Part shown: in pieces, positions 7,377 to 53,316 of the stretch | How positions within the stretch are numbered: the stretch's first letter is position 1 | Layout: every line of letters starts with the position of its first letter | Source of the DNA: Parcubacteria group bacterium | GTDB lineage: Bacteria; Patescibacteriota; Patescibacteriia; UBA2169 | DNA length: 64,000 bases | Assembly (NCBI GenBank): GCA_016181765.1 | Contig: JACOYR010000004.1 | Location: 115,937-179,936 of the forward strand | Direction of reading: 5' to 3' | Made by a program: the position numbers and the translations under genes | Notes under the pieces: generated by a model | What the model saw: the letters and a program-made list of their open reading frames with translations, nothing else | Told to the model about the DNA's origin: nothing | Database searches by the model: none

Positions 7377-7501
7377 TCCCCGCCTCTCTTGTCCGTGAAA
7401 GTGAAAAGGGTATGGTTAGCCGCTTGTCAAAGTACAAAAACAACGCTGCCCTCTGTACCTGTTTGCAAACCTACCAAATAATGCGTATCAACGCAAGGCG
7501 C

Positions 7502-22169: not shown

Positions 22170-22208
22170 ATTTTGGGTGCAAGCAGTTTTTTCTGCTATA
22201 ATTTAGAT

Positions 22209-32342: not shown

Positions 32343-32850
32343 CGCGCACCCGCGCAATACGCAGGGACAACCGGACCGCGAGAGCCGCGCCAAGGCCCAC
32401 CAGCGCGCCAACTGCCGCATCCTCAACGAAGTGGACGCCGGCAAGCACGCGTCCCACGGACACCAAAAACGCCATGCCCAAAAATAGCCAGGCGTTTTTT
32501 TGTTTCATCAGGGCATAAGCGCACCCGAGCGCCCACGCGATTGCGGCATGGTCCGAGGGGTACGAGCCCCCTAAGTGCGCGGTGCTGATGAGAGCATGCG
32601 CAACCTCGCCCGAAACAAACGGCCGGGGGCGGACGATTAGGAAGCCAATCAGCGCATTAGCGCCGTACGCAAGAAGGGCGCTCCCAGCAAGGAGTATTGC
32701 CGCGCGGCGCGTGGTCCGGGCGCGCCAGAGCGCGATCAAAAGCAAAACGGCCATCACCCATATCAAATAGGACGCCAAAAAAACAACCAGGGATTCGGGC
32801 AGGCGCTCTCCCGCCTCAAACAGGGCACGGCTTGCGGATGGGCCAATCAT
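32326..32850 (-). CDS. PAP2-family phosphatase (undecaprenyl-diphosphatase-like)
   Basis: PAP2 motifs KX6RP (IVRPRPF), PSDH (YPSDHAA), SRX5HX3D (GRVLAGVHFVEDA). Confidence 0.8.
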   Translation of the reverse strand: MIGPSASRALFEAGERLPESLVVFLASYLIWVMAVLLLIALWRARTTRRAAILLAGSALLAYGANALIGFLIVRPRPFVSGEVAHALISTAHLGGSYPSDHAAIAWALGCAYALMKQKNAWLFLGMAFLVSVGRVLAGVHFVEDAAVGALVGLGAALAVRLSLRIARVRAIVSR

Positions 32851-34427
32851 ACGAGCGAGCGGGAGGCCATGTCCGCGGGAATGGGCAGGCCGAGGATAGT
32901 GAGGATGGTCGGGGCAACGTCCGAAAGCACGCCCCCAACCGTCATCTGGTGCAAGGCGAGATCGCGCTCAAGCGGTTCCGCGCGCTTGAACGCGTCCCCC
33001 ACCAGGGTGCACGGCACCGGATTGGCGCTGTGCTCTTTGATGATGTGCCCGTTTTCCCAATTCACCATCTCTTCCGCGTTTCCGTGGTCAGCGGTTATGA
33101 TGAGCACACCGCCCCGCTTGGCAACGGCGCGGGCGACCGCGGCAAGGGATTCGTCCACCGTGCGCAAACCCTGGATGGTTGCCGCGAGGTTGCCGGTGTG
33201 CCCCACCATGTCCGCGTTCGCGAAATTGGCGATGATCACGTCGTGCGCCCGGGACTGGAGGGACTCAAGGATCTTCCTGGTGATGTCCGGGGCAGACATC
33301 TCGGGCTTGTCCGCGTACGAGGCAACGCCCGCGGAGGGCACGATCACGTTCTCCTGGCCTTGGTAGCTCTTGTCCTCGCCCCCGTTGAAAAAGTAGGTCA
33401 CGTGCGCGTACTTTTCGGTTTCCGCGATATGGAGCTGTGAGAGCGAGGCTTCGGAAAGCACGCGCGAAAGCGGGTACGCAACGATTTCTTTTTTGAACGC
33501 GACCCGCACCGGAAGGTCCAGGCCGTAGGAAGACATGGCCACGAAGTAGAGGTCCGAGAGCAGGGTCCGGGGAAACTTATTGAACCCCGGCAGCACGAAC
33601 GCGGCAGTGAGCTCCCGGGCGCGGTCCGGCCGGTAGTTCGTAAAAATCACTGAATCCCCGGGCTGGACCCGGCTGGTGCCGGGATCTCCCGGATGGGAGA
33701 TGGCTGCGGGAACAAACTCCTCGTCGTACACCCCGCGTCCGTAGCTTGCCGCAAGCGCGGCAAGCGCGTCCGGAAACGTTTCCGCGGACTCGCCGCGCGC
33801 CATGGCGCGGTACACCTGCTCAATCCGGTCCCAGTGGTTGTCGCGGTCCATGGCCCAGAACCGCCCGGAGAGGGTGGCAATGGTTCCGGCCCCGAGCCGC
33901 TTGATGGCTTTATCAAGCTGCTTGAGGTAGGTTGCGGCGCTATTGTACGGCGTATCCCTGCCGTCCAGGATGAGGTGCAAAAAAACCCGCGAAAGCTTTG
34001 CCCGCGCAGCCAGTTCCAAGGTGGCGTAGATGTGGTCCGCCTGCCCGTGGATCCCCCCGTCAGAGAGGATGCCCGCAATGTGCAGACTGGAATTATGCTT
34101 CTTGCAGTGCGCAATGGCCCCCGCGAGCTCCGCGTTCTCAAAAAAGCTTCCGTTCTCAATGGCCTGGTTGATGCGCAACACGTCCTGGTACACGATCCTG
34201 CCGGCCCCGAGGTTAAGGTGCCCCACTTCGGAGTTGCCGGGCTCGCCCCAGGGCAATCCCACCGCCTCGCCGCTCGCGGCGAGGCTGAATGTCTGGTACT
34301 GCTTGAGCAAGGAGCCGTAAAACGGCAGGCGCGCCTCGGTGATGGCGTTGCCGCGCGAAGGAGGGGCAATCCCGAACCCGTCCAGAATCACGAGCGCGAG
34401 CGGTAGGTTGTTGGCGGATGCGGGCAT
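32847..34427 (-). CDS. gpmI: 2,3-bisphosphoglycerate-independent phosphoglycerate mutase, paralog 1
   Basis: Full-length iPGM with metal-binding and phosphoserine motifs. Confidence 0.9.
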   Translation of the reverse strand: MPASANNLPLALVILDGFGIAPPSRGNAITEARLPFYGSLLKQYQTFSLAASGEAVGLPWGEPGNSEVGHLNLGAGRIVYQDVLRINQAIENGSFFENAELAGAIAHCKKHNSSLHIAGILSDGGIHGQADHIYATLELAARAKLSRVFLHLILDGRDTPYNSAATYLKQLDKAIKRLGAGTIATLSGRFWAMDRDNHWDRIEQVYRAMARGESAETFPDALAALAASYGRGVYDEEFVPAAISHPGDPGTSRVQPGDSVIFTNYRPDRARELTAAFVLPGFNKFPRTLLSDLYFVAMSSYGLDLPVRVAFKKEIVAYPLSRVLSEASLSQLHIAETEKYAHVTYFFNGGEDKSYQGQENVIVPSAGVASYADKPEMSAPDITRKILESLQSRAHDVIIANFANADMVGHTGNLAATIQGLRTVDESLAAVARAVAKRGGVLIITADHGNAEEMVNWENGHIIKEHSANPVPCTLVGDAFKRAEPLERDLALHQMTVGGVLSDVAPTILTILGLPIPADMASRSLV

Positions 34428-34436
34428 AGAGGGGGC

Positions 34437-36008
34437 TTACGCCTTAAACAGGCTCTTGCCGGTCATCTCCTCGGGCTTCCGGATGCCGAAAAGGTCCAGG
34501 ATAGTGGGGGCCACATCCCCGAGGATCCCCTCCTGGCGCACCCGGGGCAGGGCAGGCCTGCCCGCGGATTCGGCGGGCCAGATCCAGCACGGAACCTGGT
34601 TCTTGGAGTGCTCGGTGTCAACGCGCCCGCTGGACAAATCTTTCATCTCCTCAATGTTGCCGTGGTCCGCGGTCACGATGAGTACGCCGCCCCTGCGCGC
34701 AACCGCATCAGCAACCGCGCCCACGGCCGCGTCCGTTGCCTTAAGCGCGATCCGTGCCGCCGCAAAGTCGCCGGTGTGCGCCACCATGTCCGTGGCCGCA
34801 ATGTTCGCGGCCACAAAATCATACCCCTCGGAAAGGGCGCGCACGATTGCTGCCGCGATTTGGGCGGTTGCCATTGCCGGAGCCTGGTCGTAGCGGTCAA
34901 CCGCGGGCGACGGGATCATGAGCCGCTTTTCGCCGGCGACCGGATCCGCGTACCCCCCGTTGAAAAAGTACGTCATGTGCGCGTACTTTTCGGTTTCCGC
35001 GATGTAGAGCTGGCGCTTGCCCGCGAGTACTGCGGGCAGGGTGCGGGTGACGTCTATGCTCGGGTAAGCCGTGAGAATGCCTTCCAGGTCCGGCCCGAAG
35101 TCCGAAAGCGCCACAAACTTCAGATTTTTTATGACCTTTTTTGGCTTGAACGTTTCCGAGTTCTTTCCGATGAAATCTTTCTGCACAAAAGGCTTGGTGA
35201 GCTGGCGCGCCCGATCCGACCGGTGGTTGAAAAAGATGATGGAATCGTTATCTTGGATCGTGCCGATGGCCCTGCCGCCCTCGCAAATGACTGTGGGCTC
35301 TATGAACTCGTCCGTAACGCCATTTTCGTAATTTGCGTCAAACACTGCAAGCGGCTCTTGGGCGCAGGGCCCCTCGCCCAAGACAATCGCGTTATAGATC
35401 CGCTCGGTCCTTGCCCACTCTTTTTTGCGGTCCATGGCAAAGAACCGGCCCGTGATGCTCGCGATTGCCTGGCCCGGGGCGAGCCGCCGCGCGAGGGACG
35501 CGCAGAGCTCGCGTCCCGCGCGCGGCGAAGAGTCCCGGCCGTCCGTGAACAAATGCACGTACACGCGCTCCACGCGTTCCCGGGACAGGAGTGCAAGCAG
35601 CGCGTACAGATGCTCGGGCGTTGCATGCGCGCTCTGGCCGTCCGAGAGCATGCCCATCAAATGCACGCGTGAGTTATTCCGCTTGGCATGGCCAATGGCT
35701 TCGCGGAACGCGGGATTTTTGTTAAAAGTGCCATCCGCGATTGACTCCGAAATGATCACCGGGTCCTGCTTGACCACCCTGCCCGCGCCCAAATTAAGGT
35801 GCCCTGCCTCGGAGTTCCCGTCCTGGTCCTTGGGCAGGCCAACGTACTGGCCGTGCGCCCAGAGCCGCGCGGTCCGCGACTCGCCCTCTATTTTATTGAA
35901 CAAGGGCAGCTCGGTTCTTGTGATGGGATTTGATTCGGAATCCGGAGCAAGCCCAAAGCCGTCCAGGACGAGCAGCACGACCGGCCCTAAAATTTTTGTG
36001 TTCTGCAT
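34437..36008 (-). CDS. gpmI: 2,3-bisphosphoglycerate-independent phosphoglycerate mutase, paralog 2 (divergent, roughly 45% identity to paralog 1 by eye)
   Basis: Same domain architecture; tandem with paralog 1. Confidence 0.9.
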   Translation of the reverse strand: MQNTKILGPVVLLVLDGFGLAPDSESNPITRTELPLFNKIEGESRTARLWAHGQYVGLPKDQDGNSEAGHLNLGAGRVVKQDPVIISESIADGTFNKNPAFREAIGHAKRNNSRVHLMGMLSDGQSAHATPEHLYALLALLSRERVERVYVHLFTDGRDSSPRAGRELCASLARRLAPGQAIASITGRFFAMDRKKEWARTERIYNAIVLGEGPCAQEPLAVFDANYENGVTDEFIEPTVICEGGRAIGTIQDNDSIIFFNHRSDRARQLTKPFVQKDFIGKNSETFKPKKVIKNLKFVALSDFGPDLEGILTAYPSIDVTRTLPAVLAGKRQLYIAETEKYAHMTYFFNGGYADPVAGEKRLMIPSPAVDRYDQAPAMATAQIAAAIVRALSEGYDFVAANIAATDMVAHTGDFAAARIALKATDAAVGAVADAVARRGGVLIVTADHGNIEEMKDLSSGRVDTEHSKNQVPCWIWPAESAGRPALPRVRQEGILGDVAPTILDLFGIRKPEEMTGKSLFKA

Positions 36009-40061: not shown

Positions 40062-43000
40062 TTAGAGGCCTAAGAGTGATTTGATGGGCGCGAACACGCG
40101 GAACGGGTTAAAGCCGGATCCAGAGGAACCCCGCTTAGTGGAAGCTCCCTGCACGGTCCCGCAGTCAGCCGGGCAGGATGACGTGGTTTCTCCGGTGCCG
40201 CAGTATGCGTTGCCGCACGTTTCCGAGGTATAGGAACTACTCCCGCAGTCGCCCGGGCACTTGGAAGAATCTTCCCCGTTGCCGCAAACGCCATCGCAAC
40301 TCGGGCCGTAATCATAGCTGCCGCTTCCAGTGCTTCCACTGCTTCCGCAGTCGCTCCAGCACGACGTGGATGTTTCGCCGCTGTCGCACGCGCCATTTCC
40401 GCAGTATGATCCCGAACTTCCGCCCGTGGCGCCGGTGCTGGAACAGCCGGTTGCGGGCGTGGCGGCACAGGAATACAGGGTTCCGTTCGCGGTGTAGTAA
40501 TTGAGCATGGACGAATCAAAACAGTTGCCGTCCGAACCCATAGTGTGCCAGCCGCTCCCGTATTTGGTGTCACAACTAGAGGTTGTTGATGTCGTGCCGC
40601 CGGTGAATGCGGAACAGCCAGGGTCCGCCGCATCAATGAAGCCATCAGCATCATTATCAACGCCGTCCGCGCATTTGAGCTGCGTGTCTTCGTAGCTGCT
40701 CGCCGCCGTTCCGCACCCGGATGATGAGTAATAGCAGTAGCTCGTTGAACCACTGCTGGTACTGGCGTACCAGCAACAATTTGAGGCAGCGGTGCACGAC
40801 GCCTGGCCAGCATACGAACCGCATGAGCCATACTGGCCGCTTGAGCCGCCGCAGTCGCTTGGGCAGCTTGAGTACGATTCATTGGACTCGCACACGCCGT
40901 CGCTGTCGCAGAATGAGCCGCTTCCCCCGCTCGTGTACGCGGAACAGCCCGGGTCCGCCGCATCAATATAGCCATCAGCATCATTGTCAACGCCGTCCGC
41001 GCATTTGAGCTGTGTGTCTTCGTAGCCGCCGCTCGTGGTTCCCCCGCAATCAGCAGGGCACGACGTGGAAGATTCGCTGGAACCGCAGATGCTGTCCCCG
41101 CACGTGTCGGTCCTGCACGCCGTAGGGCAGCCCGTGCTGCTGTAGGTACAGCCACTCGGGCACTTTGAATAGGAGCACGAGTAGGAGCCCGTGTTGTTGT
41201 TGTACGCGTTGATGGGGCACACCCCGCCGGAAGAGAGGCAGCTCGCCGGGCACCCGGTTGAATCGTAGTTGCACCCATTCGGGCATGCCTTGTAGTTGCA
41301 CGTGGTTCCGGTGGTCTGGTTGTTGTACTGGTTCGCCGGGCACGAAGGGGCGGTGTAGCAGCCCGTGGTACAGCCGGTTGAATCATAGCTGCACCCTGAC
41401 GGGCACTTCTTGTAACTGCACGAGTAGCCGCTGGTATAGTCGTTAAACTCAGTTGCCGGGCACGAAGTTGTTGTGCCGGACTTGCAGTCGCTCGGGCAGG
41501 ACGACGTGGTTTCTCCGCTTCCGCAGAATCCATTGCCGCATGTCTCCTTTACTTCTACTTCACTGGCGCCAGAACAATCCGGAATGCCGAAGTTCCTCCA
41601 GTCTCCGTCATCCCCTGCGTTGGATTTCCAGGAAAAATTCGCTTTTGGAACCTTGGTGCACTGCGCGGCAACGCCTGCGATGAAGCTTATGTACTCGCTG
41701 TCCGTGCGGTTCAAAATGTATGAGGTTTCAGTTTGGCCGTCGCTGAACTTCCAGGTCTTGCTCACCCAATTCTTGCTGCCCGGGTCTTCTGGGGCTTTCT
41801 CCGGGGCTGTGCACTTGCCCAGGAACTGGTCGTAATAATCCCCCGGGGCGCAGGTTGGGGAGCAACCCTTGGCGCAGCCAAAATTATCGTACAAGCAGTA
41901 GCTTGAGCCGCTACACGAGGGCGTGCACGAGAGCGGGCAGTTGCCCACCACCGAACTGTCCTGCCTGCAGTACCCACTGTCGTCCCACACCCAGCCGCGC
42001 TCGCACGAGCCCTTGCTTGGTGGTACGTAATCACTGCTGTTCAGGCACTTCTTGATCTGCTGTGCCCAGAACTGGCCCTTGGCGCACTCCTGGATAAAGG
42101 TTCCGCACTGCCCAAAGTATTTAACCGCAACGCCGCGAGCGCGCGCCTTGCAGTCATTGTCATAGGTGGCGTTGTCGCTGCCGCACACCGGACTGTAGAC
42201 ATCCGGGCAACCAGTTCTTCCCGTTGACTGGATGCACTCGCCGAATCGGGCGCACCCCTGCGAATCTTTGACAATGTCGCGCACCTGCCCCTCGGGACAC
42301 CCGAGCGGCGATTGCGCCGAAAGGTCCGGGCAAATGGCTACCTGCTGTATGCACGAGGGCTGGCCGCAGGGATCCCCGGGCCGGGGTGGAACAGGCTGTT
42401 CTCCGGGATTGCACGCCCGCGGCGGATTGTAAACCGCCGGACAGATGAGCGTCTGTTCGCAATACCCTCGGCTTGAGTTCCACCGCTCAAAAGGACCGCA
42501 CTGCGCAAAACCAACCGGTGGACGGTAGTAGGGGTCAACCGCGCACGAAGTTCCATTCCAGTACTGGCCAGCTGCGCATGAAACACTCGCCAAGTCAATC
42601 TCATTTTGGTACACGCACTGGTTGCGCCCCTGGTCAAAAAAGCCGCCCGGGCCGCAATCCTTGAACGTGTGTTCAACCGTTGCCCACTCGCACCCCCGAA
42701 CCCCGGGGTTCGCCGTACAGTACTGCTCGCACTGCTCCGGGGTAGTGCACTTGCCGGCCAGGGGGTTGTTCTCTTTGAAATCTTTCCGCTCCCGCTCAAT
42801 GCGGTTGCGCTCCCGCACCAAGTCGTCCGCCAGGCGCTCTTTTTCGTGCCGCGCCTCCTGCTCCAAAAACGTCAGCTGTATCTGGCGGCACGCGCTGTCG
42901 CACCAGGGGTCATTTTGCATGCGAGCCTCAAAAATCCGCTTGCGCTCGCCAAACACCTCGTCAGACCGCGATACCTGATTATTGATTTTTTCTTCCCACA

Positions 43001-44948
43001 GCGCCTTTCGGGTTCCAAAGTCTTCCCAGGAAATATCGTTGAGCTTCTCAAAAAATGCCTCCTCTTCCTGGCGCTGGACACGGTCCACCTGGAAGTTCAC
43101 CTCCCGCTCTTCATAGTCCAGCGCGGCCCGCGCAATCTCCCGCTCGCGCTCAAACTTCTGCTGTTCAACCTTGCGGACCTTGAACTGCAAGGCATCCTGG
43201 AATCCGCTGTCGCGGGCCCTGATGTCGTTGATGACGAACTCCGGCACGTCAAAGAACCGCTCGTGGAACCGGTCAAACGCTGCCGGCTCGGAAACGTCCT
43301 GCATGAACACTTTGTATTGTTCCGTGTTCTTGCGCACGAATTGGTCCTGGAACTCATCTCCAAACTGCAGATCCGCAAGAATCGCCATGTCAGAGGGATC
43401 CAGGGTTGCCACCTGGTTCAAAAACCGGTCCCCTTGCCGGCGATACTGGCTCTCAAACTGCTGGGTCATGGCCTGCTCTATCTGGTCCAAGAACTCCCGC
43501 TTTGCCGGGTCGGCTTGAACATCCTGTTCAAGGGAAGCAATCAGCTTAAAGGTCTTTGGAGAGGGATTGTTCAAAAAGTCGTCAGAGAGTTTTTGAAACC
43601 TCGCTGCCTGGTCCTGGGACTCGGCATCCTTAAACCGCTGCTTGAACGCGTCAACCGAACGGCTGTGCACCCCCTCAACGAGCTTGAATTCCTCCGAATC
43701 GGCGCTCATGCGGTTCTTAAACTCATCAAGCACAACCAAGTCCGCAACATCGTCGGTATCAAAAGACCGAAAGAACCGGTCAGAAACCTCGGGGTCGTCA
43801 ATAAGGGAGAGCTTGTCCTCAAACTTGCGGACCGCAATTTCCTTGGCCTCTTCTATCTTTGCGAGGATGTCGTCCGAAATGCCGCTTGACCGCTTGATTT
43901 CTTCCAGGATCCCGAGGAGCCGCGTTTCATCAATGGCCGCGTGCTCCAGGTACTGGGAAAACTTCTGGCCGCGCACGGCCTCGGGAATGTTCTGGATGCG
44001 GATCTCAAACTTTTGGATGGTGTTCTTTTTGGCCTGCGCAATCGCGTCTTTAACCGTAGCCGGAGCGCTGTCCCGCATGGCCTCAAGGATTTCCAAATTC
44101 TTAAGCTCCTTAAACTCGGACCCGGCCTGCTTGTCAAAGGCGCGCGTCATGCGGACGCGGACCTGATCCGGCTCATCTTCCACTCCGGCCAAGAGCTCGG
44201 TAAAATTTCCAATGGTTTTTTCCTTGGCGTCCGAAACATGCGCCACCACCTGCTCAAGCCCGGCATCCGGCTCCTCGCCCGTATCCCGCGCAAGCTGGCG
44301 CGCTTTGACTGCCTCGTCCGAAATGTCCTCCAGCACCTGCCGGTGCTTGATCTGCTTGTCCGCCACCTCGTCCAGCACGCGCTCCACCTCAAGCGGGTTG
44401 TCGGCCTTGGCGCTCTTGAGACGGGCCGTGGTCGCCCGCACATCCTCAAACTTCTTCTCAAACCGATCAATGGCGCGGTTCAGCGCGCCCGGATCCACTT
44501 GCGAAACACCTCGCTCATCAACCATCTGCTTGACCTCGGAAAGCTCCTGGTTCGCGTGCTTGAACTTAAGCTCCGCGTCCGCGACCGAGTCAAAAGTGAA
44601 CGCCTCCTGGATGCCCCAGCCAAAACGCTTGAACACGTGCAGAGGGTTATCAGGCAGGATGCGCGCCTCGCTGGTTCCCAAATCTTGAAGGCTGACACTG
44701 AAGTCCTGCACCACCTCAAGCGGAGGCTCATTTGACTGGGCTGCGGTCTGGGTAGCGCCGTCAGAAACCGGTTCTTGAGTTGCAGATTCAGCATCGCCCG
44801 CAGCCTGGTCCTGTACTGCTTGGTCTTGCGCCCCCGCAATCCCAACAAACAAAAAAGCCGCTGACAACGCGGCTACGAAAACAGACAACAACGAAAATCG
44901 TGTTGTTTGGCGGTTTAAGCGTACACTACAATATGTGCCAACCCCCAT
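40062..44948 (-). CDS. Giant membrane-anchored surface protein (1628 aa): N-terminal TM, ~700-aa charged helical stalk, C-terminal mosaic of Cys-rich modules including a Kazal-like domain, tandem ~38-aa Cys repeats, Asp-rich Ca-binding-like motifs and CGNGxCxxGET..CPxDC repeats
   Basis: Uninterrupted ORF; CPDVYSPVCGSDNATYDNDCKARARGV matches Kazal consensus; KCADGVDNDADGYIDAADPGCS occurs twice; repeats CP..YN..TG..C.Y..CP.GC.YDSTGC three times. Confidence 0.7.
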   Translation of the reverse strand: MGVGTYCSVRLNRQTTRFSLLSVFVAALSAAFLFVGIAGAQDQAVQDQAAGDAESATQEPVSDGATQTAAQSNEPPLEVVQDFSVSLQDLGTSEARILPDNPLHVFKRFGWGIQEAFTFDSVADAELKFKHANQELSEVKQMVDERGVSQVDPGALNRAIDRFEKKFEDVRATTARLKSAKADNPLEVERVLDEVADKQIKHRQVLEDISDEAVKARQLARDTGEEPDAGLEQVVAHVSDAKEKTIGNFTELLAGVEDEPDQVRVRMTRAFDKQAGSEFKELKNLEILEAMRDSAPATVKDAIAQAKKNTIQKFEIRIQNIPEAVRGQKFSQYLEHAAIDETRLLGILEEIKRSSGISDDILAKIEEAKEIAVRKFEDKLSLIDDPEVSDRFFRSFDTDDVADLVVLDEFKNRMSADSEEFKLVEGVHSRSVDAFKQRFKDAESQDQAARFQKLSDDFLNNPSPKTFKLIASLEQDVQADPAKREFLDQIEQAMTQQFESQYRRQGDRFLNQVATLDPSDMAILADLQFGDEFQDQFVRKNTEQYKVFMQDVSEPAAFDRFHERFFDVPEFVINDIRARDSGFQDALQFKVRKVEQQKFEREREIARAALDYEEREVNFQVDRVQRQEEEAFFEKLNDISWEDFGTRKALWEEKINNQVSRSDEVFGERKRIFEARMQNDPWCDSACRQIQLTFLEQEARHEKERLADDLVRERNRIERERKDFKENNPLAGKCTTPEQCEQYCTANPGVRGCEWATVEHTFKDCGPGGFFDQGRNQCVYQNEIDLASVSCAAGQYWNGTSCAVDPYYRPPVGFAQCGPFERWNSSRGYCEQTLICPAVYNPPRACNPGEQPVPPRPGDPCGQPSCIQQVAICPDLSAQSPLGCPEGQVRDIVKDSQGCARFGECIQSTGRTGCPDVYSPVCGSDNATYDNDCKARARGVAVKYFGQCGTFIQECAKGQFWAQQIKKCLNSSDYVPPSKGSCERGWVWDDSGYCRQDSSVVGNCPLSCTPSCSGSSYCLYDNFGCAKGCSPTCAPGDYYDQFLGKCTAPEKAPEDPGSKNWVSKTWKFSDGQTETSYILNRTDSEYISFIAGVAAQCTKVPKANFSWKSNAGDDGDWRNFGIPDCSGASEVEVKETCGNGFCGSGETTSSCPSDCKSGTTTSCPATEFNDYTSGYSCSYKKCPSGCSYDSTGCTTGCYTAPSCPANQYNNQTTGTTCNYKACPNGCNYDSTGCPASCLSSGGVCPINAYNNNTGSYSCSYSKCPSGCTYSSTGCPTACRTDTCGDSICGSSESSTSCPADCGGTTSGGYEDTQLKCADGVDNDADGYIDAADPGCSAYTSGGSGSFCDSDGVCESNESYSSCPSDCGGSSGQYGSCGSYAGQASCTAASNCCWYASTSSGSTSYCYYSSSGCGTAASSYEDTQLKCADGVDNDADGFIDAADPGCSAFTGGTTSTTSSCDTKYGSGWHTMGSDGNCFDSSMLNYYTANGTLYSCAATPATGCSSTGATGGSSGSYCGNGACDSGETSTSCWSDCGSSGSTGSGSYDYGPSCDGVCGNGEDSSKCPGDCGSSSYTSETCGNAYCGTGETTSSCPADCGTVQGASTKRGSSGSGFNPFRVFAPIKSLLGL

Positions 44949-45066
44949 GTGTTTTATTTTTGATTTCTTTTAGGTTGTGAGTGAAGAGGTACACTACTAT
45001 TACACCACATGCGCGGTGTTTGCACAAATGGAGTTGTGGATAACTACGCCTGGGGACTTTTGACCT

Positions 45067-45172
45067 CAATCGGCAGTGTAAATGTAAACATACTCCCCTT
45101 GCCCTCGCCCTCTGATTCGGCCCAGACGCGGCCGCCGTGCGCTTCTATAATTTTTTTGGCGATGAAAAGCCC
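45067..45172 (-). repeat. Diverged duplicate of the histidine kinase 3' end (encodes ...[40 protein letters not shown] on minus strand)
   Basis: ~106 bp aligning to 46263-46368 with differences concentrated at codon third positions. Confidence 0.75.
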
Positions 45173-45247
45173 TCTTCCGGACCCACCGGAAAATTTTGAC
45201 AAAAAACCAACACGGAATTTTCATTAACTCGGCAAGAGAAATTTAAC

Positions 45248-45285
45248 AATCAACGACCTCGGGCAGCAATGTCCAAGGTCGTTTT
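45248..45285 (+). terminator. Stem-loop acgacct...aggtcgt followed by T6
   Basis: 7-bp stem plus TTTTTT at the cassette edge. Confidence 0.4.
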
Positions 45286-45912
45286 TTACAGCGTCTTTAT
45301 CACTCCTTCAATTTTCTCTCGATCGGCCGTATTAAAATGACAGGTATCAATAAAGTGAGTATATTTTCCCGGCTCAACAGACAGCTCTCCAGCTACATAC
45401 CGTTGCAATGCCACGAACTCATTCATATTCATGAGCAGCTTTCCATAACAATCACTGGCACGCATATGTACGTGAATATCAAGCTTTCCGTCAATAATCT
45501 GAAACCATAGGATCTGTAAGCAAGGAGCTATGGATCCATGAATATCCACTTCTTGTTTCCAAATAGAGGCTTGCGCTCGTTTTCCGTTTGGTTTTTCTCT
45601 GAGATATTCAATAACATTTTGAATTTGATTTGGCTCACTGTCAAACAGGCGTTTGCGATATATCTTGGTCCAGTCATGGGTTACTTGATCTGCATGCTCA
45701 CCTGTCAGTAAGTAGTGGCTAATAGTATCTACCTGGCCTTTCGGCATACCAAAACGAATATCAAACAAATCTTGAATCGCATCTTCTACCTCAATAATCA
45801 TCGCTTCATCGCGGAATATTTCGTCATTCTCCGTGGCGCGGCCATTGTTATACAAGTCTTTCATGGCTTTTCGCCATGCCTGGCTGATAGTTGCTGTTTT
45901 TATGGTAAGCAT
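45286..45912 (-). CDS. Short thymidylate synthase-like protein (ThyA fold, methanogen-type size, 208 aa)
   Basis: SIAPCLQILWFQIIDGKLDIHVHMRASD aligns with ThyA catalytic-Cys segment (APCHxxxQFYVxDGKLSCQLYQRSxD); AT-rich. Confidence 0.55.
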   Translation of the reverse strand: MLTIKTATISQAWRKAMKDLYNNGRATENDEIFRDEAMIIEVEDAIQDLFDIRFGMPKGQVDTISHYLLTGEHADQVTHDWTKIYRKRLFDSEPNQIQNVIEYLREKPNGKRAQASIWKQEVDIHGSIAPCLQILWFQIIDGKLDIHVHMRASDCYGKLLMNMNEFVALQRYVAGELSVEPGKYTHFIDTCHFNTADREKIEGVIKTL

Positions 45913-46013
45913 TATACTGAATTCATAGTTGGTTAGGCAGTACTGCGTCCATGCCAGGGGCTAGCGGAACTCTTTTTAGTATACAACCTCTGGCGCGGAA
46001 AGGAAATCACACA

Positions 46014-46277
46014 ATGGAGCCATATATCGGTATCACCGGATTTACCACAAGGAAACAAACGGTGGTGATTGCCGACGGACTCTCGGCTGGTACTATTACG
46101 TTCCTTGATCCTTTGACCATGCATTCCTCTAAGTTAAGTATTGATGCCGAAAGTCGGCTGCGGACCGCAGATGATGAGCTCGATATAGAACGCTGTCGTG
46201 CGTATATAATTCAATCATTGAAATTTTTTAGCAGATTTGGTGCGGCCACTCTTATTCCACCGCAATCGGCAACGTAA
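46014..46277 (+). CDS. Hypothetical small protein (87 aa) inside the cassette
   Basis: ORF with plausible SD (aaggaaa); no motifs. Confidence 0.3.
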   Translation: MEPYIGITGFTTRKQTVVIADGLSAGTITFLDPLTMHSSKLSIDAESRLRTADDELDIERCRAYIIQSLKFFSRFGAATLIPPQSAT

Positions 46278-48432
46278 ATGTGAACATGGAGCCCTTGCCC
46301 TCGCCCTCTGATTCGGCCCAGACGCGGCCGCCGTGCGCTTCTATAATTTTTTTGGCGATGAAAAGCCCGAGGCCCGATCCGCCGGTGTGAATGCGCGTGG
46401 TTGCCTCTGCGCGCGTGAACTTCTGGAACAGCCTGTCCATTTCAATGGGGTCAATGCCCATTCCCGAATCCCGCACCTCAAACGTGATGAGCGACTTTGA
46501 GCGCGCAAGCCGCACGTTGACCCATCCGGTATCAGTGTACTTGATGGCATTGTCCACCAGGTTCATCATCACGTCGTGGATCTTGTCCCTATCAAGGCTC
46601 ATCGCGGGCAAAGGCCCATCCGGCTTCTGCACCGTAAGCTCTAATCCCTTGGTCTTTGCCTGATGCTGCAAGTCCCCAACCACCTCATCCACGATCTCCT
46701 CAAACCGGACGCTTGACTTGGTGAGTTCCAGCCTGCCCGTCTCAATGCGCGACACGTTCAAAAACACGTCAATGAGGCGCGTGAGCCGGTCCGAGGAGCG
46801 GAAAATGCGCTCCAATTCTCCGCGCTGTTCCGGAGTGAGTACTCCGTAATCGCCATCCAAAAACATGGACACATAGCCCTTGATGCCGGTGAGCGGAGTG
46901 CGCAATTGGTGCGCGGCGATGGAGAGGAACTCGGATTTTGACTGGTCCAGCTGCTTTAAGTGGGCGTTTGCAACCTGCAGTTCCGCGGTCGCATCATCCA
47001 CTTCTTTCTTGAGTTTGACCGCGAACTGCTGGGCTTCGTCGTAGAGCTTGGTGCGGCCCAAGGCGGTCGCCATCTGCGGGGCAAGCACGTCAAACGCATC
47101 AATAAGTTGCCTATCAAAAATATCTTTGGAAAGTTTTGGCCCCAATGCCACGATGGCAACCAGATTCCCCTCAACCATCACGCGCCGCGCAAGCGAAATG
47201 TCCAAGCCGTGGAGTTCATCAACAAGGAGCCCAATCCGCGCGTACTCGCCCTTGGTCGGAGCCTCGTTCTGCTCAAGCTCAACCTCTTCGGCCACGAGCA
47301 CCGGCTCGCTTGAGAGCGCGGAAACGAGCGTTGAACCGGCCGCAATGGCGCCCGTATCCCCGGCAAGCAGGGCATACCCGCCGCTCGCCTCATCCAGGAT
47401 GTAGACGCGCGCGTGGCGCACCTTGAGCCGCTCTTGAAGCATCATGGACACCGCGCGCACCAAACCCTCCTGGCTCACCTCCTCGGAAATGGACAGGCCC
47501 ATGTCGCGCAAGAGCTTCTGGTAATCCGGCTGGCCGCGGAAAAAAATGTTCGCCGTGATTGTGGCAAATAGCCGATCAAACGGGTCGTGTAAAAAGATGA
47601 CTAAGAGCGCGAGCACGCCCCCCACCAAGAGCGACTGCGTGCTGAATAGGTCCCTGCCGAACGCGCCGAACGCGAAGAGTACAATCTGCACGAACACGAA
47701 CGACGTTGCGAACGAAAACGCGTACTGCAGCAGGCGGCTCGCGACCAGCCGAATGCTCATAAGCTTGTACCGCACAATGGCAATGGCGATGAACGTAATC
47801 AAGAAGAGCGTAAACAAAGGCCCGAGCCAGATGTAGCGGTAGTCGCCGACCAAGGGCAAGATGAGGTTCGTGGTTGCGCCGCCTGCGGTGGTGATGAGCG
47901 TGCCCAAGAGCACGTACCGAATCTGCAGCTTCCGGATGCCGATGGACTCTCTGCCTTTGCGCCAGAGCAAAAAGAACGCAATGCCCATGTACATGATAAA
48001 GTACACAGTGTACACTACATACCCCCACCCAAGTATCACATCCTTGCCCCAGGGCTGGATGAACAGGGCCTCAATGTGGAGCGGGGTGAAGACCATGATG
48101 CAGATGGCGAGGAACGGAACTCCGAGGGCCGCCTCGGAGAGGCGCGAGATGGGGTTCTTGGCGTACGGGAACGCGCGCGCAAACAGCAGGAACACGTATG
48201 CGATGAATGCCGCGGAAATGTAGTAGAGCCGGGCCCAGTTGAGGGCGTGCGAGAGCGTATCCGTGCTCTCAAAAAACGCCAATCCGAGCGACCAGCCGAA
48301 GATGCCCAAGGTTACCAGGCCGAATGCTACGTTGATGCGGCTCCTCGCGAGGCGCGCGAAAATCAAAAACCCAAGGACAAGGTTGAGCCCTCCAAACACC
48401 AGCAAAACTATGTCCCTGGGGTCAAACGCCAT
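46252..48432 (-). CDS. Sensor histidine kinase with multi-TM sensor domain (7TM-like), HisKA and HATPase_c domains
   Basis: H-box (SIAAHQLRTPL), N, G1, G2 boxes (GGSGLGL); N-terminal ~7 TM helices. Confidence 0.9.
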   Translation of the reverse strand: MAFDPRDIVLLVFGGLNLVLGFLIFARLARSRINVAFGLVTLGIFGWSLGLAFFESTDTLSHALNWARLYYISAAFIAYVFLLFARAFPYAKNPISRLSEAALGVPFLAICIMVFTPLHIEALFIQPWGKDVILGWGYVVYTVYFIMYMGIAFFLLWRKGRESIGIRKLQIRYVLLGTLITTAGGATTNLILPLVGDYRYIWLGPLFTLFLITFIAIAIVRYKLMSIRLVASRLLQYAFSFATSFVFVQIVLFAFGAFGRDLFSTQSLLVGGVLALLVIFLHDPFDRLFATITANIFFRGQPDYQKLLRDMGLSISEEVSQEGLVRAVSMMLQERLKVRHARVYILDEASGGYALLAGDTGAIAAGSTLVSALSSEPVLVAEEVELEQNEAPTKGEYARIGLLVDELHGLDISLARRVMVEGNLVAIVALGPKLSKDIFDRQLIDAFDVLAPQMATALGRTKLYDEAQQFAVKLKKEVDDATAELQVANAHLKQLDQSKSEFLSIAAHQLRTPLTGIKGYVSMFLDGDYGVLTPEQRGELERIFRSSDRLTRLIDVFLNVSRIETGRLELTKSSVRFEEIVDEVVGDLQHQAKTKGLELTVQKPDGPLPAMSLDRDKIHDVMMNLVDNAIKYTDTGWVNVRLARSKSLITFEVRDSGMGIDPIEMDRLFQKFTRAEATTRIHTGGSGLGLFIAKKIIEAHGGRVWAESEGEGKGSMFTFTLPIAVE

Positions 48433-49304: not shown

Positions 49305-49991
49305 TCAAGCGAGCAATTGCGCGTCAAGGCGCCTGGCTTCCTTCTTGAAAAATGCCTTGATGGTTTTCCAGTTTGCATCAAAGTAGGTCTCTGGCATGGG
49401 GTCATTCTCCGCATCATCAAAGTACGCAAGGCTCTTGATGAAGTGCGGAACGTTGTGCTCCTGATCGGGATACTGGTTCGGGACGCGCTTGAGAACGCCA
49501 ATGAGCGGCTCCCGATGCTTCGCGTACCAGTACAAATCAACAAAATCCCGCTTGCGGCCGCGCTGGGAAAGGGCAATGATTTTCATGACCGCAATGTCTT
49601 CCGGAACCAGCATGCGCACGTTGCCGCATGCGACGAGCCGAGGCGACGGGCGGAAAAAGGGATAGGCGATAAAACTCATTTTCACGCCTTTCAGCGTTCC
49701 GTAGAGCGTTCCGTTTTCCTGGTACGTAGTTTTCCACTGTTCAGTTGCGACAAGCGACCGCTCCAGCAAGGCTTTATTGAACTCGGCGTACGGGATGAAG
49801 AAATCAAGATCAACGGATTTCCGGTGCCCGACCTGCAGCGCGAGCGCGGTGCCGCCAGCGAGGTACCAGTCTGTGTTTTTGAGCAGCGGCAACTCGGCGA
49901 GGTACAAAAATGCCCGCCCGGTTGCGCGGGGGAGCGCATCAAGATGCAAATCATCGGGATTGGCTTTTTCTACCGAAAGACGAGCGACCAT
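49305..49991 (-). CDS. AbiEii/DUF1814-family nucleotidyltransferase (type IV TA toxin-like), copy 1
   Basis: YLAGGTALALQVGHRKSVDLDFF motif. Confidence 0.65.
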   Translation of the reverse strand: MVARLSVEKANPDDLHLDALPRATGRAFLYLAELPLLKNTDWYLAGGTALALQVGHRKSVDLDFFIPYAEFNKALLERSLVATEQWKTTYQENGTLYGTLKGVKMSFIAYPFFRPSPRLVACGNVRMLVPEDIAVMKIIALSQRGRKRDFVDLYWYAKHREPLIGVLKRVPNQYPDQEHNVPHFIKSLAYFDDAENDPMPETYFDANWKTIKAFFKKEARRLDAQLLA

Positions 49992-50248
49992 AGTGATCGT
50001 GATTTATCGTGAAGCACACGCGATTTTTTAACAACCTTACTGATTCGCCTTGGCGTGTAGTATCGCCGCATCCATTTGACTTCGTTTGTCCTGCCAAAAT
50101 CCAAAATCCGCTCAATGATGTAGGTTGAGTGCTTCTTGGGATCAATCTTTTTGGGGTCAACGTCCCAGAACAAAGACTGCCTGAATGCGATGACCGGCTT
50201 TTGGCGTTTCGCCTTGCTGGTTTTCTTTTTTATAACCGGCATATACAT
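49970..50248 (-). CDS. Small basic protein (92 aa), probable partner/antitoxin-like of AbiEii copy 1
   Basis: Overlaps downstream AbiEii start by 22 nt. Confidence 0.35.
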   Translation of the reverse strand: MYMPVIKKKTSKAKRQKPVIAFRQSLFWDVDPKKIDPKKHSTYIIERILDFGRTNEVKWMRRYYTPRRISKVVKKSRVLHDKSRSLWSLVFR

Positions 50249-50320
50249 TCAGTATAACACAAAATAGAGCTCTCTGCAAAGGTTTTCAAGGGAATGGCGC
50301 TGTGCTCCATCCTTAGGCTG

Positions 50321-51016
50321 TTACTTATCGCTCTCAAGACGCGCCTTTAGCAAAAAAATGGTTTCCGAGCGGAGTTTTGCCCGGGCCCAGTCTTTCTGGC
50401 TCTCAGTCAAAAATTCGCCGAGGCCGTCCAAGATGCTCCGATTGTTCATGCGCTCCAAGAGCTCAATGCACTTCTGCGCCGTTTCCGCGTACGGCATGCC
50501 TGCTCTCTTTTCCACGATCTTTCTGTTAATCGGCCAGTTGTTTTTTGCAAAAAAATACACGTCAAAAACATCCCGGCTCGTTTTGCCGAGGCGCTCGTAC
50601 AAAGCCATGAGCTTATTGGCAAACATATCTTCGGCAACCTGCACCAGCATGGAGATGCCGAGCAGCGTTTTGAGTTCATAACGGGAACCGAATGTCCTGC
50701 GGTTGACCTCAATCTTTATGTTTTGGGCCCTGGCATCGTAGGAAAGAATGATGATTGCGCTGTAGCGCTTGAGCCGCGACTCCCGTATGTCGCCGTAGCC
50801 GCGGGCAATCGTTTCCAGTTTCTCAAATACTTCTTTTTCTTTGCGTTCGTCCAAGAGATCAAAATCAAGATCAACCGAATAACGGTTCAAATGGTAAAAC
50901 AGGAGCGCCGCGGTTCCGCCTTTAAAGCCGAGGTGCGGGGCAATGGCTGTGTCAGTGTATATGTCCTTGAGCATCCGGAGCTGTATGTTTTTGTGTTTTG
51001 AATAATCAAATGCCAT
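50321..51016 (-). CDS. AbiEii/DUF1814-family nucleotidyltransferase, copy 2
   Basis: GFKGGTAALLFYHLNRYSVDLDFD motif. Confidence 0.7.
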   Translation of the reverse strand: MAFDYSKHKNIQLRMLKDIYTDTAIAPHLGFKGGTAALLFYHLNRYSVDLDFDLLDERKEKEVFEKLETIARGYGDIRESRLKRYSAIIILSYDARAQNIKIEVNRRTFGSRYELKTLLGISMLVQVAEDMFANKLMALYERLGKTSRDVFDVYFFAKNNWPINRKIVEKRAGMPYAETAQKCIELLERMNNRSILDGLGEFLTESQKDWARAKLRSETIFLLKARLESDK

Positions 51017-51019
51017 AGG

Positions 51020-51616
51020 TTATGCGGCGCTCTTGCAGTGTTTGAAATATTCGGCAACCTTCTTTGCCATGCTCTTGTTGTTGTAGATGGGCAAAATCTC
51101 AAAAACCCTATCCCAGTCCAAGGGATCCAAATGATCAAAGTGGTACTCTTTGCTTGCATACACCCGGTCTAAAAATGCCCTCTCTTTTTCGGCAATGGCG
51201 TAGCCTGCGGCATGGTCAATGCCGATGGTATTGGACAGCACATAATCTTTCATCCGTATGAATGCGATTTTTTGATCACCCACGCGTATCTCTCTTGAAA
51301 CGTATGACGCGACAAAAATAGTATCGTAATACTGGAACGTAATGCCGACGCGAGCCAAAACAGTCTCAAAGCTGACATACGAGGGCGTGTAGATCCTTGT
51401 CGCCAGTTCAAATGCGTCATACTTTTTATCTTTGGCATACAAGCCGCGGCGCACCCTAACCAGTTTTCCTGCCGCAACGTATTTATTCAACCGCGCGCTG
51501 ATGGCGCTCTCTTTTTCCTCGCCCCACAACAAAGCGGCATCTTTGGTGGAAAAGACGGTCCTGGGTGATCTTAACAAAATCCCCAAGTATTCCCCTTTTT
51601 TAGGTTTTTTATCCAT
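51020..51616 (-). CDS. AbiEi-family antitoxin/transcriptional regulator (wHTH)
   Basis: N-terminal AbiEi_4-like LVRVRRGLYA motif; 4-nt gap to AbiEii. Confidence 0.65.
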   Translation of the reverse strand: MDKKPKKGEYLGILLRSPRTVFSTKDAALLWGEEKESAISARLNKYVAAGKLVRVRRGLYAKDKKYDAFELATRIYTPSYVSFETVLARVGITFQYYDTIFVASYVSREIRVGDQKIAFIRMKDYVLSNTIGIDHAAGYAIAEKERAFLDRVYASKEYHFDHLDPLDWDRVFEILPIYNNKSMAKKVAEYFKHCKSAA

Positions 51617-51714
51617 TTTTGTACTGGAAATTACCTTAAAAGTAATTTACAGTTCATATAGTAACATAAATCAATATCAAAAGCAAGTGTGCCGCATCTA
51701 AAATTCAAGAAAAA

Positions 51715-53316
51715 TCAAAACAAGGTTCCGGCTTTGGCCGACCCTCCTGCTTCGGCATGCGCCCAGGCCGCGAGGAAGCGGTTCAAAAATTCCTGGGACC
51801 CGTCCCGGTCTTCCAAAAACTGCGAGAGCACCAGGGCTACGGAAATGACGATGTGGTACTCCTCCATGCCGCGCTGTTTGGCTTTTGCCCAGGCCGGGTG
51901 CAGGGTGTTGACGGTAAGCACATCATCAATGATGCGGCCCAACGCCATGTCCGGAGCATCCACCATGTCCGCCAGCTCAATGGCAAGTCCGCTGGTCCTG
52001 GCGCGGATTTCGCGCTTTTTGGCTGCATCCGCAACGCCAAAAGGCGGCCTGCTTTTCCCTGCATCCTGGCCGGAAGCGCCGTGGCGGCCGCCTGCTTTTT
52101 CCTCTGAAGCGCCCGATTGTTCTTCCTCTCCTAGCACAGCTTTCTTGGACGCGGCTTGGGGCTTCTCTTTTCTGCCAAGCGTTTTTGCGCGCCCGGCGCC
52201 GATGAGGCCTTCCAACTCCGGGAAATCGCCAAGCAAGCCATCTAGCGCGCCGCTGATGACGCGCCGGAGCGGCCTGACCAGCTGTTCCGGAGACGCGGAT
52301 GCGGACGGCGCGCGCTCCCCCAGGCGCTCCAGAATCAGCACCACTGCCTCTTGCACGGCCTTGCGGAATTTGTAGTATTTTTTTAAGGACCCGGAATCAG
52401 TCAAAAAATCATTCTTGTTGGTGGTAAGAATTTCCGACAGCCCGGGAATCTCCACGACCCCGGAAAGGCTGTCCGCGTGGCTGGGAATGATCCCCAGCCA
52501 CTCCCAGCCGCCCTTGATGATTTTGCCGAACGTGGAAACGTACAGCCCGGCCGGCAGGGACGTGGCAATGATTTTTTTGCCCAAAAAATTCTCCAGCCAA
52601 TTTCCCTGCATGTCGGTTTTGGCCAGAAACCCGATGCCGGCCGGACGCCGGGTTTTGCCAACGCTCACCTTGAACCAGTGCTGAAGCGCGTCCTGCCCGG
52701 ACTCCGGCAGTTCAATCTTTTTTCCGTTGATAAAAAAATAAATAGGCTTTTTGTAGAAATAACGCAGGAACTCGGCGTGCATGGTCTGGTTCAGCAGAGG
52801 ATAAAAATGCCTGATAACGGTGCGCCGCACAAAATCCGGCTTGAGAAGATGCGACTGGCTGTCGCTGAAATGCATGCTGACCGAAGTGCCGCGGGGTCCG
52901 GAAACAGCGCCCGAAAAAGACACGAATTTCCACGGCGCCCGGTACGCATTTGACAGGCGCCACTCGGTTGCGCACCGCGAACCATACCCGCCCTTGCTCT
53001 CGGTAACCACCCGCTCGGCCAAAAGCAAGGAGAGCTTTGCTCCCACGCCGGCGAATCCGATGCCCGCGCCCCGGCGCTTGGCCGTGGACGCGATATTGTG
53101 GTACTCCCGCAGAACAGAACGCTTCATGCCTTGGCCGTCGTCCGCGCACCGCAGAACTTTGCTGTCGGCGTCAACCGAAAAATGAATGGAGCTGGCCTTG
53201 CTGTCCAGCGCGTTTGCGATAAGCTCGGTTACAATAACCTCTTCCAGGGACGAAGCGTACGCGTCCCGGATATCCTCCAGAAGGTGTTTTAGATTGACGC
53301 GGGTTTCGTTGGGCAT
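51715..53316 (-). CDS. Standalone GHKL-family ATPase (HATPase_c_3 / MORC-like Bergerat fold) with long C-terminal region
   Basis: Bergerat motifs ELIANALD (N box), DDGQGM (G1), GFAGVGAK (G2); no kinase H-box. Confidence 0.6.
   Translation of the reverse strand: MPNETRVNLKHLLEDIRDAYASSLEEVIVTELIANALDSKASSIHFSVDADSKVLRCADDGQGMKRSVLREYHNIASTAKRRGAGIGFAGVGAKLSLLLAERVVTESKGGYGSRCATEWRLSNAYRAPWKFVSFSGAVSGPRGTSVSMHFSDSQSHLLKPDFVRRTVIRHFYPLLNQTMHAEFLRYFYKKPIYFFINGKKIELPESGQDALQHWFKVSVGKTRRPAGIGFLAKTDMQGNWLENFLGKKIIATSLPAGLYVSTFGKIIKGGWEWLGIIPSHADSLSGVVEIPGLSEILTTNKNDFLTDSGSLKKYYKFRKAVQEAVVLILERLGERAPSASASPEQLVRPLRRVISGALDGLLGDFPELEGLIGAGRAKTLGRKEKPQAASKKAVLGEEEQSGASEEKAGGRHGASGQDAGKSRPPFGVADAAKKREIRARTSGLAIELADMVDAPDMALGRIIDDVLTVNTLHPAWAKAKQRGMEEYHIVISVALVLSQFLEDRDGSQEFLNRFLAAWAHAEAGGSAKAGTLF

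Follow-up and report, generated by a model that had tools for sequence, protein, structure and literature searches.

RESULTS

The 3' end of a histidine kinase gene is duplicated around a short cassette

We analyzed a 64-kb stretch of DNA from a Parcubacteria-group metagenome-assembled genome (protein names HYT31_03305 and HYT31_03310), referred to here as the window. Within it, a histidine kinase gene is followed by a cassette of ~1.2 kb that carries a thymidylate-synthase-like (thyA) gene, and beyond the cassette lies a second, detached copy of the kinase's own 3' end. Comparison with relatives shows that the kinase now ends in sequence that arrived with the cassette and that its original tail was left behind downstream. 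The features of the kinase and of the duplication, in the order in which the minus strand is read, are as follows (L numbers denote related loci and contigs; nt, nucleotides).

46252 to 48432, minus strand: histidine kinase gene from the list of open reading frames (ORFs), 726 amino acids, with HisKA_7TM, HisKA, and HATPase_c domains (Pfam); orthologues at 83-50% identity
46369 to 46385, minus strand: left edge of the proximal copy, native; T-GGSG-L codons
46292 to 46368, no strand assigned: repeat core copy 1; 77 nt identical to copy 2; 26 residues
46252 to 46291, minus strand: imported replacement kinase tail, ending AVE-stop
45173 to 45189, minus strand: left edge of the distal copy, imported; S-GGSG-R
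45096 to 45172, no strand assigned: repeat core copy 2; 77 nt identical to copy 1
45044 to 45095, minus strand: native, displaced kinase tail, ending EVKSPQA-stop; 26/28 nt to L012
40062 to 45043, minus strand: native downstream neighbor, an intergenic region and the gene for a giant DUF5667 surface protein (1628 amino acids); synteny with L012, L017, and L018; L001 crosses the junction

The kinase ORF is intact, but its last 13 codons and stop are of imported sequence. A repeat finder returned a single repeat family at the locus, comprising two direct copies (45063-45189 and 46259-46385) of 127 nt that are 88% identical and spaced 1196 nt apart. Both copies lie on the minus strand and encode the kinase C terminus from GGSG (followed by L or R) onward, that is, the last 43 codons. 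When the copies were compared codon by codon, the peptide from GGSG to LPI was the same in both apart from the one L/R change. This is the arrangement that an earlier reading of the DNA, made from the sequence only, had described: two copies of the kinase C terminus bounding an AT-rich cassette.

The formal alignment and rate calculation suggested in that sequence-only reading were carried out over 42 aligned codons, which contain 16 nucleotide differences. Its codon examples (AGT/TCC for Ser, CTG/TTG for Leu, and GGT GGG TCC GGA versus GGC GGA TCG GGC) were all correct, and the differences are mostly synonymous (11 synonymous versus 5 nonsynonymous by the Nei-Gojobori method). Its statement that almost all differences lie at third positions was somewhat overstated, since the split over codon positions 1/2/3 is 3/3/10; all three positions of the L/R codon are changed, and the AGT/TCC serine switch also involves positions 1 and 2. 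The synonymous rate (dS) is 0.49 and the nonsynonymous rate (dN) is 0.054, giving a dN/dS of ~0.11. A ratio of ~0.13 was obtained for a comparable duplication in L028, described below. From these ratios, the copies diverged at a time when each belonged to a working kinase.

The central 77 nt are identical between the copies (45096-45172 = 46292-46368), and every difference is confined to the two edges of the repeat; 0/25 codons are changed in the core versus 13/17 in the flanks (Fisher p = 9e-8). Because the orthologues depart from this core at 6-23/77 positions, its identity within the window genome is secondary. Downstream of the TLPI motif, kinase tails are hypervariable across the family, being 3-31 residues long and of low complexity. 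The sequence-only reading had also raised a longer second kinase pseudogene as a possible source of the distal fragment. This was ruled out, since only residues 683-726 of the kinase match and no kinase homology adjoins the fragment.

Logan assemblies from three other sequencing runs contain the cassette at 100% identity. One of these contigs, L001, also spans the distal copy and continues into the giant gene, and the other two, L002 and L003, end inside the 77-nt core, as a k = 31 graph must. The exact kinase protein was not indexed on any contig, and its 90% protein cluster holds no second member for a comparison of tails.

The outer halves of the two copies are native and the inner halves imported

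In four relatives, nothing intervenes between the kinase gene and the DUF5667 giant gene or the conserved intergenic sequence upstream of it, an arrangement that the sequence-only reading had suggested looking for. These are L012, L009, L017, and L018, whose kinases are 90% (C-terminal part), 84%, 83%, and 68% identical in amino acid sequence to that of the window; the synteny of kinase and giant gene without a cassette was seen in L012, L017, and L018. The empty site is therefore ancestral.

The repeat was then split into left edge, core, and tail, and each part was compared with the relatives. The left edge of the proximal copy, which belongs to the intact kinase, matches the closest orthologues (L012, L017, and L009) at 11-13/15 nt and all relatives at 9-13/15. 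The proximal tail matches L017 at 25/28 nt and L012 at just 20/28. In the distal copy the pattern of tail matches is reversed, the tail there resembling that of L012, and the distal tail together with the intergenic motifs that follow it (GTTATCCACA...GTGGTGTAATAGT) aligns with the sequence after the kinase stop in L012, L009, and L017. The distal left edge matches the proximal copy at 8/15 nt and every orthologue at 8-10/15, the shared positions being those needed to encode GGSG; all four third positions of the GGSG codons differ between the two left edges. None of the orthologues compared has a kinase tail ending in AVE, and no orthologue with the imported tail was found that would name the donor lineage.

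On this evidence, the outer halves of the two copies are native, and the inner halves came with the cassette, which is the product expected of one reciprocal crossover with DNA carrying its own kinase 3' end. The kinase thus now ends in imported sequence, with its original tail left as an orphan downstream. Two earlier proposals are borne out by these comparisons: that the insert carried a replacement copy of the target gene end (the kinase ORF is complete and closes with an imported tail, its native end having been displaced), and that the duplicate derives from the kinase 3' end of a different lineage and is not a recent target-site duplication (dN/dS ~0.11, L017-like tail).

Two observations concern the neighbors of the site. 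The giant DUF5667 protein (40062-44948) has Cys-rich internal repeats (repeat families D2 and D3), and its gene varies in length and repeat number, from 1628 amino acids in the window to 1697 in L013 and two genes (643 and 1175 amino acids) in L018. On the other side, 49305-53316 holds two AbiEii/AbiEi type IV toxin-antitoxin modules and a HATPase_c_3 protein, immediately upstream of the methyltransferase-kinase pair; they are absent in L009, L017, and L018 and form a second variable islet at the same operon.

The cargo is an eroded chromosomal thyA block

The remaining features of the cassette, from the kinase side to the distal copy, are as follows.

46014 to 46277, plus strand: ORF of 87 amino acids; remnant of geneX comprising residues 1-23 and 192-247, with an in-frame internal deletion
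45913 to 46013, minus strand: upstream region of thyA, likely promoter (predicted); conserved with L013, L014, and L004
45286 to 45912, minus strand: thymidylate-synthase-like gene, 208 amino acids, a short archaeal-type form; the sole intact cargo gene
45252 to 45283, no strand assigned: hairpin, terminator of the ancestral convergent thyA/gmk pair; U-run on the plus strand only
45187 to 45243, plus strand: probable, marginal relic of the C terminus of pyrF (orotidine 5'-monophosphate decarboxylase), 19 codons; abuts the distal kinase copy

The thymidylate-synthase-like protein scored 52.9 bits against Pfam PF00303 (Thymidylat_synt; cut-off, 24.3), and the active-site Pro-Cys is retained in an alignment to solved thymidylate synthases, so that it has both the family score and the catalytic cysteine of ThyA. 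It also matches PHROG thymidylate synthase families. Against the methanogen-type NCBIfam equivalog TIGR03283 it scored 96.6 bits, under the cut-off of 174.55, and that model does not establish its specificity. There are 74 homologues besides the protein itself, those named being mostly from the candidate phyla radiation (CPR). The cargo gene probably supplies thymidylate synthesis.

In seven related contigs (L004-L008, L014, and L037, of which L005-L007 have the same protein), thyA stands convergent with gmk-pyrF-ribA in an ordinary chromosomal block. Relatives also have a 247-residue gene, here called geneX, divergent from and upstream of thyA, and nucleotide homology to L013, L014, and L004 extends beyond the thyA start codon to window positions 46009-46048. 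The 87-residue ORF was identified by tblastn and tblastx against L014 positions 485-1228 as what is left of geneX: residues 24-191 are missing, its own stop codon is lost, and the frame runs into the kinase tail. No homologue of it was found in a word-based search of 5.8 billion proteins, and its status as a gene in its own right was rejected on the L014 comparison.

On the other side of thyA, the hairpin folds at -18.4 and -20.7 kcal/mol on the two strands (z = -4.2 and -4.7), and 0/200 shuffles were as stable. A simple terminator scan missed it, the loop being too long for the scan, and it was recovered by folding. Homology with the gmk-context loci passes through it. Next to the hairpin, the segment at 45187-45243 aligns with RKLLNSEGLGVFVNSSRGI of L014 pyrF at 22.7 bits, a score reached by 0/200 shuffles, and its position is colinear with the ancestral thyA-gmk-pyrF order; it is a probable pyrF C-terminal relic. 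Of the three features that the sequence-only reading had placed between the copies, the thyA-like gene and the terminator stand, and the 87-residue ORF is present as a deletion remnant.

Because it combines a geneX remnant, the thyA/gmk terminator, and a probable pyrF relic, the cargo is recognizable as an eroded copy of a geneX-thyA-(gmk)-pyrF chromosomal block from lower-GC Parcubacteria. The GC content is consistent with this: the cassette has 42.9% versus 55.6% for the window, and the genomes of the gmk-context relatives have 43-49%, values that point to foreign chromosomal DNA and not to the backbone of a mobile element.

Kinase 3' ends carry other cassettes in related loci

Metagenomes were scanned with a degenerate pattern of the core peptide, which returned 17 loci, and a translated search for additional kinase fragments was then performed. 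Three further occupied sites were found: L028, L031, and L033. L028, from Hainich groundwater, has three kinase fragments interleaved with cargo. Its intact kinase is followed, in order, by a Gp49/HigB-like toxin and an HI1420-type antidote, a complete second kinase end, a Bro-N gene, a third, truncated kinase fragment, an ORF6N gene with a Phd/YoeB pair, a last short repeat, and the native downstream gene. The second kinase end of L028 is 173 nt long and 87% identical, with differences over its whole length, and the tail of this fragment 2 differs from that of the intact kinase.

L031, whose kinase is as near to the window kinase as those of L009 and L017 (81.8% nucleotide identity), has a truncated RhuM gene between its kinase copies. 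In L033, the copies enclose genes for a radical SAM-SPASM protein and a methyltransferase and show 100% identity over 146 nt; the same kinase tail, with the first part of the same cassette, is seen on the short contig L035. The left boundaries of the duplicated segments differ among cassettes, lying at GGSG, FQKFT, or AEAV. Internal deletions were found in several distal fragments (L013, L031/L033, and L028 fragment 3), as expected of displaced, unselected ends.

A thyA cassette related to that of the window (82% nucleotide identity) is also present in L013, which has the giant gene in common with the window (78% nucleotide identity). There, the cassette adjoins a decayed kinase fragment and is inverted relative to the window. 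At L013 5577-6484, this cassette and the kinase fragment are fused, the first geneX codons of the one being joined to GLFIAKKII of the other. Past the thyA hairpin, the contig continues for 94 nt, which matched nothing, and then ends.

Within the clade L028/L030/L020/L033/L025 (80-87% nucleotide identity), the genes right after the kinase differ in each member. L025 and L030 have toxin-antitoxin-like pairs directly after the kinase stop and L020 a Trp-repressor-like gene, as judged from sequence features; no orphan kinase fragment was detectable in L020, L025, or L030 within the sequence covered. In L025, the toxin-antitoxin-like pair abuts a native aminotransferase gene. L033 has, at 6802-7509, a free-standing HisKA_7TM ORF (235 amino acids) that is split from the 554-residue kinase by NAD_binding_4 and methyltransferase genes; it may be a 5'-side counterpart of the phenomenon at the 3' end.

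Among 35 loci, the 12-mer AAGAAATAAACC occurs only at three cassette/kinase-fragment boundaries (L028 231-242 and 1200-1211; L031 105-116). It may be merely a lysine-rich gene end with its stop codon, and as a boundary signal it was unconvincing, with only two independent occurrences, both in lysine-rich gene ends.

Searches for recombinases, attachment sequences, and mobile elements

No integrase or transposase was found in the cassette, which holds only thyA, the geneX remnant, and the pyrF relic, or among ~45 major ORFs scanned across the window. Those ORFs are housekeeping genes together with the two AbiE modules and a restriction-modification-like cluster, and tRNA genes are distant. The cassettes of L028 and L033 and their surroundings (the scanned ORFs of ~12 kb beside L033) likewise yielded no recombinase, nor did the one L031 gene scanned. 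A cognate integrase-bearing element at the kinase site was sought in the 17 metagenome loci, 4 genome loci, a scan of viral contigs, and phage and plasmid collections, and none was detected; among the metagenome loci, Pfam coverage extended to the cassette and nearby ORFs of L028, L031, and L033.

Viral contigs contained 0 matches to the degenerate pattern of the kinase-core peptide. BLAST of the whole cassette returned nothing from phages and one irrelevant 100-nt kinase-like match from plasmids, and an Rfam scan of 44800-46500 yielded only a sub-threshold chance match. Transposon or insertion sequence hallmarks were not seen at the window cassette: there is no transposase, there are no inverted repeats, and the duplication is 127 nt long and diverged. 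When the repeats of four loci were compared, no dif/Xer-like or dyad-symmetric core was conserved among them, two loci having a weak, nonconserved inverted pair only. A common cassette backbone was likewise rejected, the cassettes sharing no sequence or arms outside the kinase pieces. The gene upstream of the kinase is a methyltransferase gene in the window, L017, L018, and L033 and a hydrolase gene in L028.

Two further clusters were recorded elsewhere in the window. At 21582-23734, a C-5 cytosine DNA methylase and an HNH endonuclease come after LexA, in what looks like a restriction-modification-like cluster. At 32847-36008 there are two tandem cofactor-independent phosphoglycerate mutase paralogues (526 and 523 amino acids) with a 59-nt stretch at 93% identity.

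DISCUSSION

Probable insertion by homologous recombination

The repeat, its native/imported polarity, the empty sites, the recurrence of occupied sites, the origin of the cargo, and the fact that no recombinase was found nearby are shown by the results above. The explanation that we favor, and that on balance is probably correct with its structural claims included, is a single reciprocal (Campbell-type) insertion of ~1.2 kb of foreign DNA into the last 43 kinase codons by homologous recombination. The incoming DNA would have brought along a kinase 3' end that began at GGSG and included the stop. After one crossover, the kinase frame would be native as far as the core and would finish in the imported tail (AVE, stop), and the imported left edge, second core, and native tail (EVKSPQA, stop) would remain 1.2 kb downstream as an untranslated orphan.

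The crossover would presumably be the work of general homologous recombination enzymes acting on circular or repeat-ended DNA from a relative. On the donor side, recombination between two kinase copies bracketing the cassette could release such DNA, presumably as a circular intermediate. Its route of entry may have been natural competence, which we infer from general knowledge of CPR gene content. The same process could explain how the 3' end of this kinase family has gathered different small cassettes, some in arrays with progressively decayed fragments.

We favor homologous recombination because the boundaries and lengths of the duplicated segments vary between cassettes and because the repeats have no conserved dyad-symmetric core and no arm sequences. 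A further argument comes from the imported kinase piece, in which three lineages are combined: the left edge has reached synonymous saturation, the core is the same as in the host, and the tail is L017-like. Such a patchwork suggests crossovers at changing positions, which fits better than a single fixed attachment core. Moreover, the untranslated left edge keeps synonymous-only differences; it was therefore probably in a working kinase until recently, and earlier crossovers would have lain to the left of it. Moving crossover positions are what cycles of homology-driven integration and excision would produce. The core could owe its identity either to such cycles in one population or to gene conversion of one copy by the other, a process that has to stop short of the ends of the homology.

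Several points weigh against this account. The window and L031, which have different cargo and belong to the same kinase clade, share a left boundary (CCGG before GGSG), and L028 and L033 share another; recurring left boundaries could point to preferred cutting sites. The inverted thyA cassette of L013 is not predicted by simple homology-driven insertion. The homology model also does not account for how the cargo came to be bracketed by kinase pieces in the first place. The recombinase scan covered the 64-kb window of a genome that extends over a 281-kb contig and others, which leaves room for a recombinase acting in trans. Finally, the 77-nt core exceeds the Logan k-mer, and the Logan contigs do not separate the integrated form from a circle.

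Alternative explanations

The strongest competitor is an integrase-less satellite, of the type of cis-mobilizable elements or cargo-only tycheposons, that depends for its movement on a site-specific recombinase with the kinase 3' end as its target, the recombinase gene lying at another place in the genome or on a helper element. The geometry is exactly that of attL and attR, with the target restored and a fragment displaced; the newest cassette in the L028 array lies beside the intact gene; cargo such as toxin-antitoxin pairs, Bro-N, ORF6N, and RhuM is of mobile-element type; and, as noted above, left boundaries recur in unrelated cassettes. Nevertheless, we regard this satellite as unlikely, although it deserves serious attention. 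No recombinase was seen in the ORFs scanned in the window and beside L033 and L028 or in the L031 gene, the kinase-core peptide was on no viral contig, and the loci have neither a conserved dyad-symmetric core nor common arm sequences. The imported left edge is also difficult to reconcile with it: that edge keeps GGSG by synonymous changes only, which a fixed crossover site would not maintain.

Far less probable is local illegitimate, or homology-facilitated illegitimate, recombination, in which the target was duplicated when a foreign fragment was joined to it and the copies later diverged or were gene converted. The plain chromosomal fragment with eroded ends, the CCGG microhomology where the pyrF relic meets the kinase fragment, and the variation of left boundaries among loci would all suit such an event. 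However, the mostly synonymous differences between the copies are unexpected for an untranslated orphan that drifts, and the AGT/TCC serine switch and L017-like tail argue for origin in a separate lineage. The polarity test also disfavors it, since both edges differ and do so with opposite native/foreign polarity.

An assembly artifact, in which DNA with the 77-nt core, from a separate small molecule or a strain variant, was assembled into a chromosome whose site is in fact empty, can hardly be entertained: L002 and L003 do break exactly at the core, and the protein cluster offers no second tail for comparison, but the core is shorter than ordinary reads and hence resolvable, L001, from an independent run, links the cassette with the distal copy and the giant gene, four further assemblies from other sites have this architecture with repeats of greater length, and an element with a kinase 3' end would exist even so.

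Significance

CPR bacteria (Patescibacteria) have tiny genomes and few recognized mobile elements, and gene exchange among them is poorly known. This locus offers a concrete route of gene gain: thyA, absent at this site in four relatives, was added in a cassette that has no recombinase, and the host gene was left undisrupted. In other groundwater lineages, this kinase end bears arrays of toxin-antitoxin pairs and other accessory genes. If the insertion was driven by homology, as we favor, the locus would illustrate how recombination at a conserved coding end can add genes to a genome, and orphan 3' fragments of a neighboring gene would provide a rule for searching metagenomes. If instead a trans-acting recombinase is responsible, the kinase end would be its attachment site.

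A broader and rather doubtful proposition is that CPR bacteria possess a cassette-capture platform whose recombination site is the 3' end of this kinase family and which works without a recombinase or with an unrecognized one. Any DNA between two copies of the kinase end would then be a portable cassette that loops out, enters relatives, and reinserts at the kinase end, building integron-like arrays and continually rewriting the kinase tail.

Comparison with known systems

The e14 element and phage 21 integrate into the 3' end of Escherichia coli icd and restore the gene, the replacement end differing from the host end mainly at synonymous sites. Islands in tRNA genes (tDNA), as defined in Islander, likewise insert at a gene's 3' end and make the target whole again (PMC4383910). 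The window cassette resembles these islands and prophages in that the target is split and regenerated from the insert, a displaced fragment marks the far end, and the site is unoccupied in relatives. The sequence-only reading had proposed an integrative element like a tRNA-targeting island. As worded, that proposal was not supported: unlike an Islander-type island, the insert contains no integrase, nor do the ~45 window ORFs, and it consists of 1.2 kb of eroded chromosomal DNA. The kinase-end duplications also differ in being long (127-173 nt), variable in their boundaries, and a patchwork of lineages.

The cis-mobilizable elements of Streptococcus integrative and conjugative element families are integrase-less and bounded by attachment sites. 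Comparable cargo arrays have been described for tycheposons at tRNA genes of Prochlorococcus (bioRxiv 10.1101/2020.12.28.424599). As in these systems, the units here consist of cargo only and lie between repeats of the target 3' end, and in L028 they accumulate in tandem beside the intact target; in the window, attachment-like repeats flank an insert without recombination genes. The difference is that those elements have a known integrase-bearing partner on the same site, of which none was found here in the collections searched, and that the kinase loci, in CPR bacteria, have a protein-coding gene as their target.

Integron arrays provide a third comparison. Like them, the kinase loci hold small, mostly co-oriented, toxin-antitoxin-rich cassettes at one fixed site, with the newest nearest the insertion point (L028). 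In contrast to integrons, there is no intI next to the array, the upstream gene being the methyltransferase or hydrolase gene given above, and there is no attI. Nor are there attC hairpins: no inverted repeats were found in L028, no dyad is common to the repeats of the four loci, and there was no Rfam match. The repeated unit is a coding 3' end, and the window locus is not an integron.

Orphan C-terminal modules form arrays downstream of cdiA and rhs genes, and their acquisition has been ascribed to homologous recombination in a conserved region, with no dedicated recombinase (PMC4927057, PMC6336857). The kinase loci differ from these in that the kinase tails are short (3-31 residues) and are not toxins, the next genes are not cognate immunity genes, and the cargo (thyA, toxin-antitoxin pairs, RhuM, and radical SAM) is unrelated to kinase function. 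The layout is nevertheless alike: an intact gene with a hypervariable C terminus is followed by cargo and then by 5'-truncated fragments that keep the conserved part and carry an alternative end, as do the distal copy of the window and fragment 2 of L028. In structure, the cdiA/rhs orphan C-terminal module array is the nearest recombinase-free counterpart of the kinase-end cassettes.

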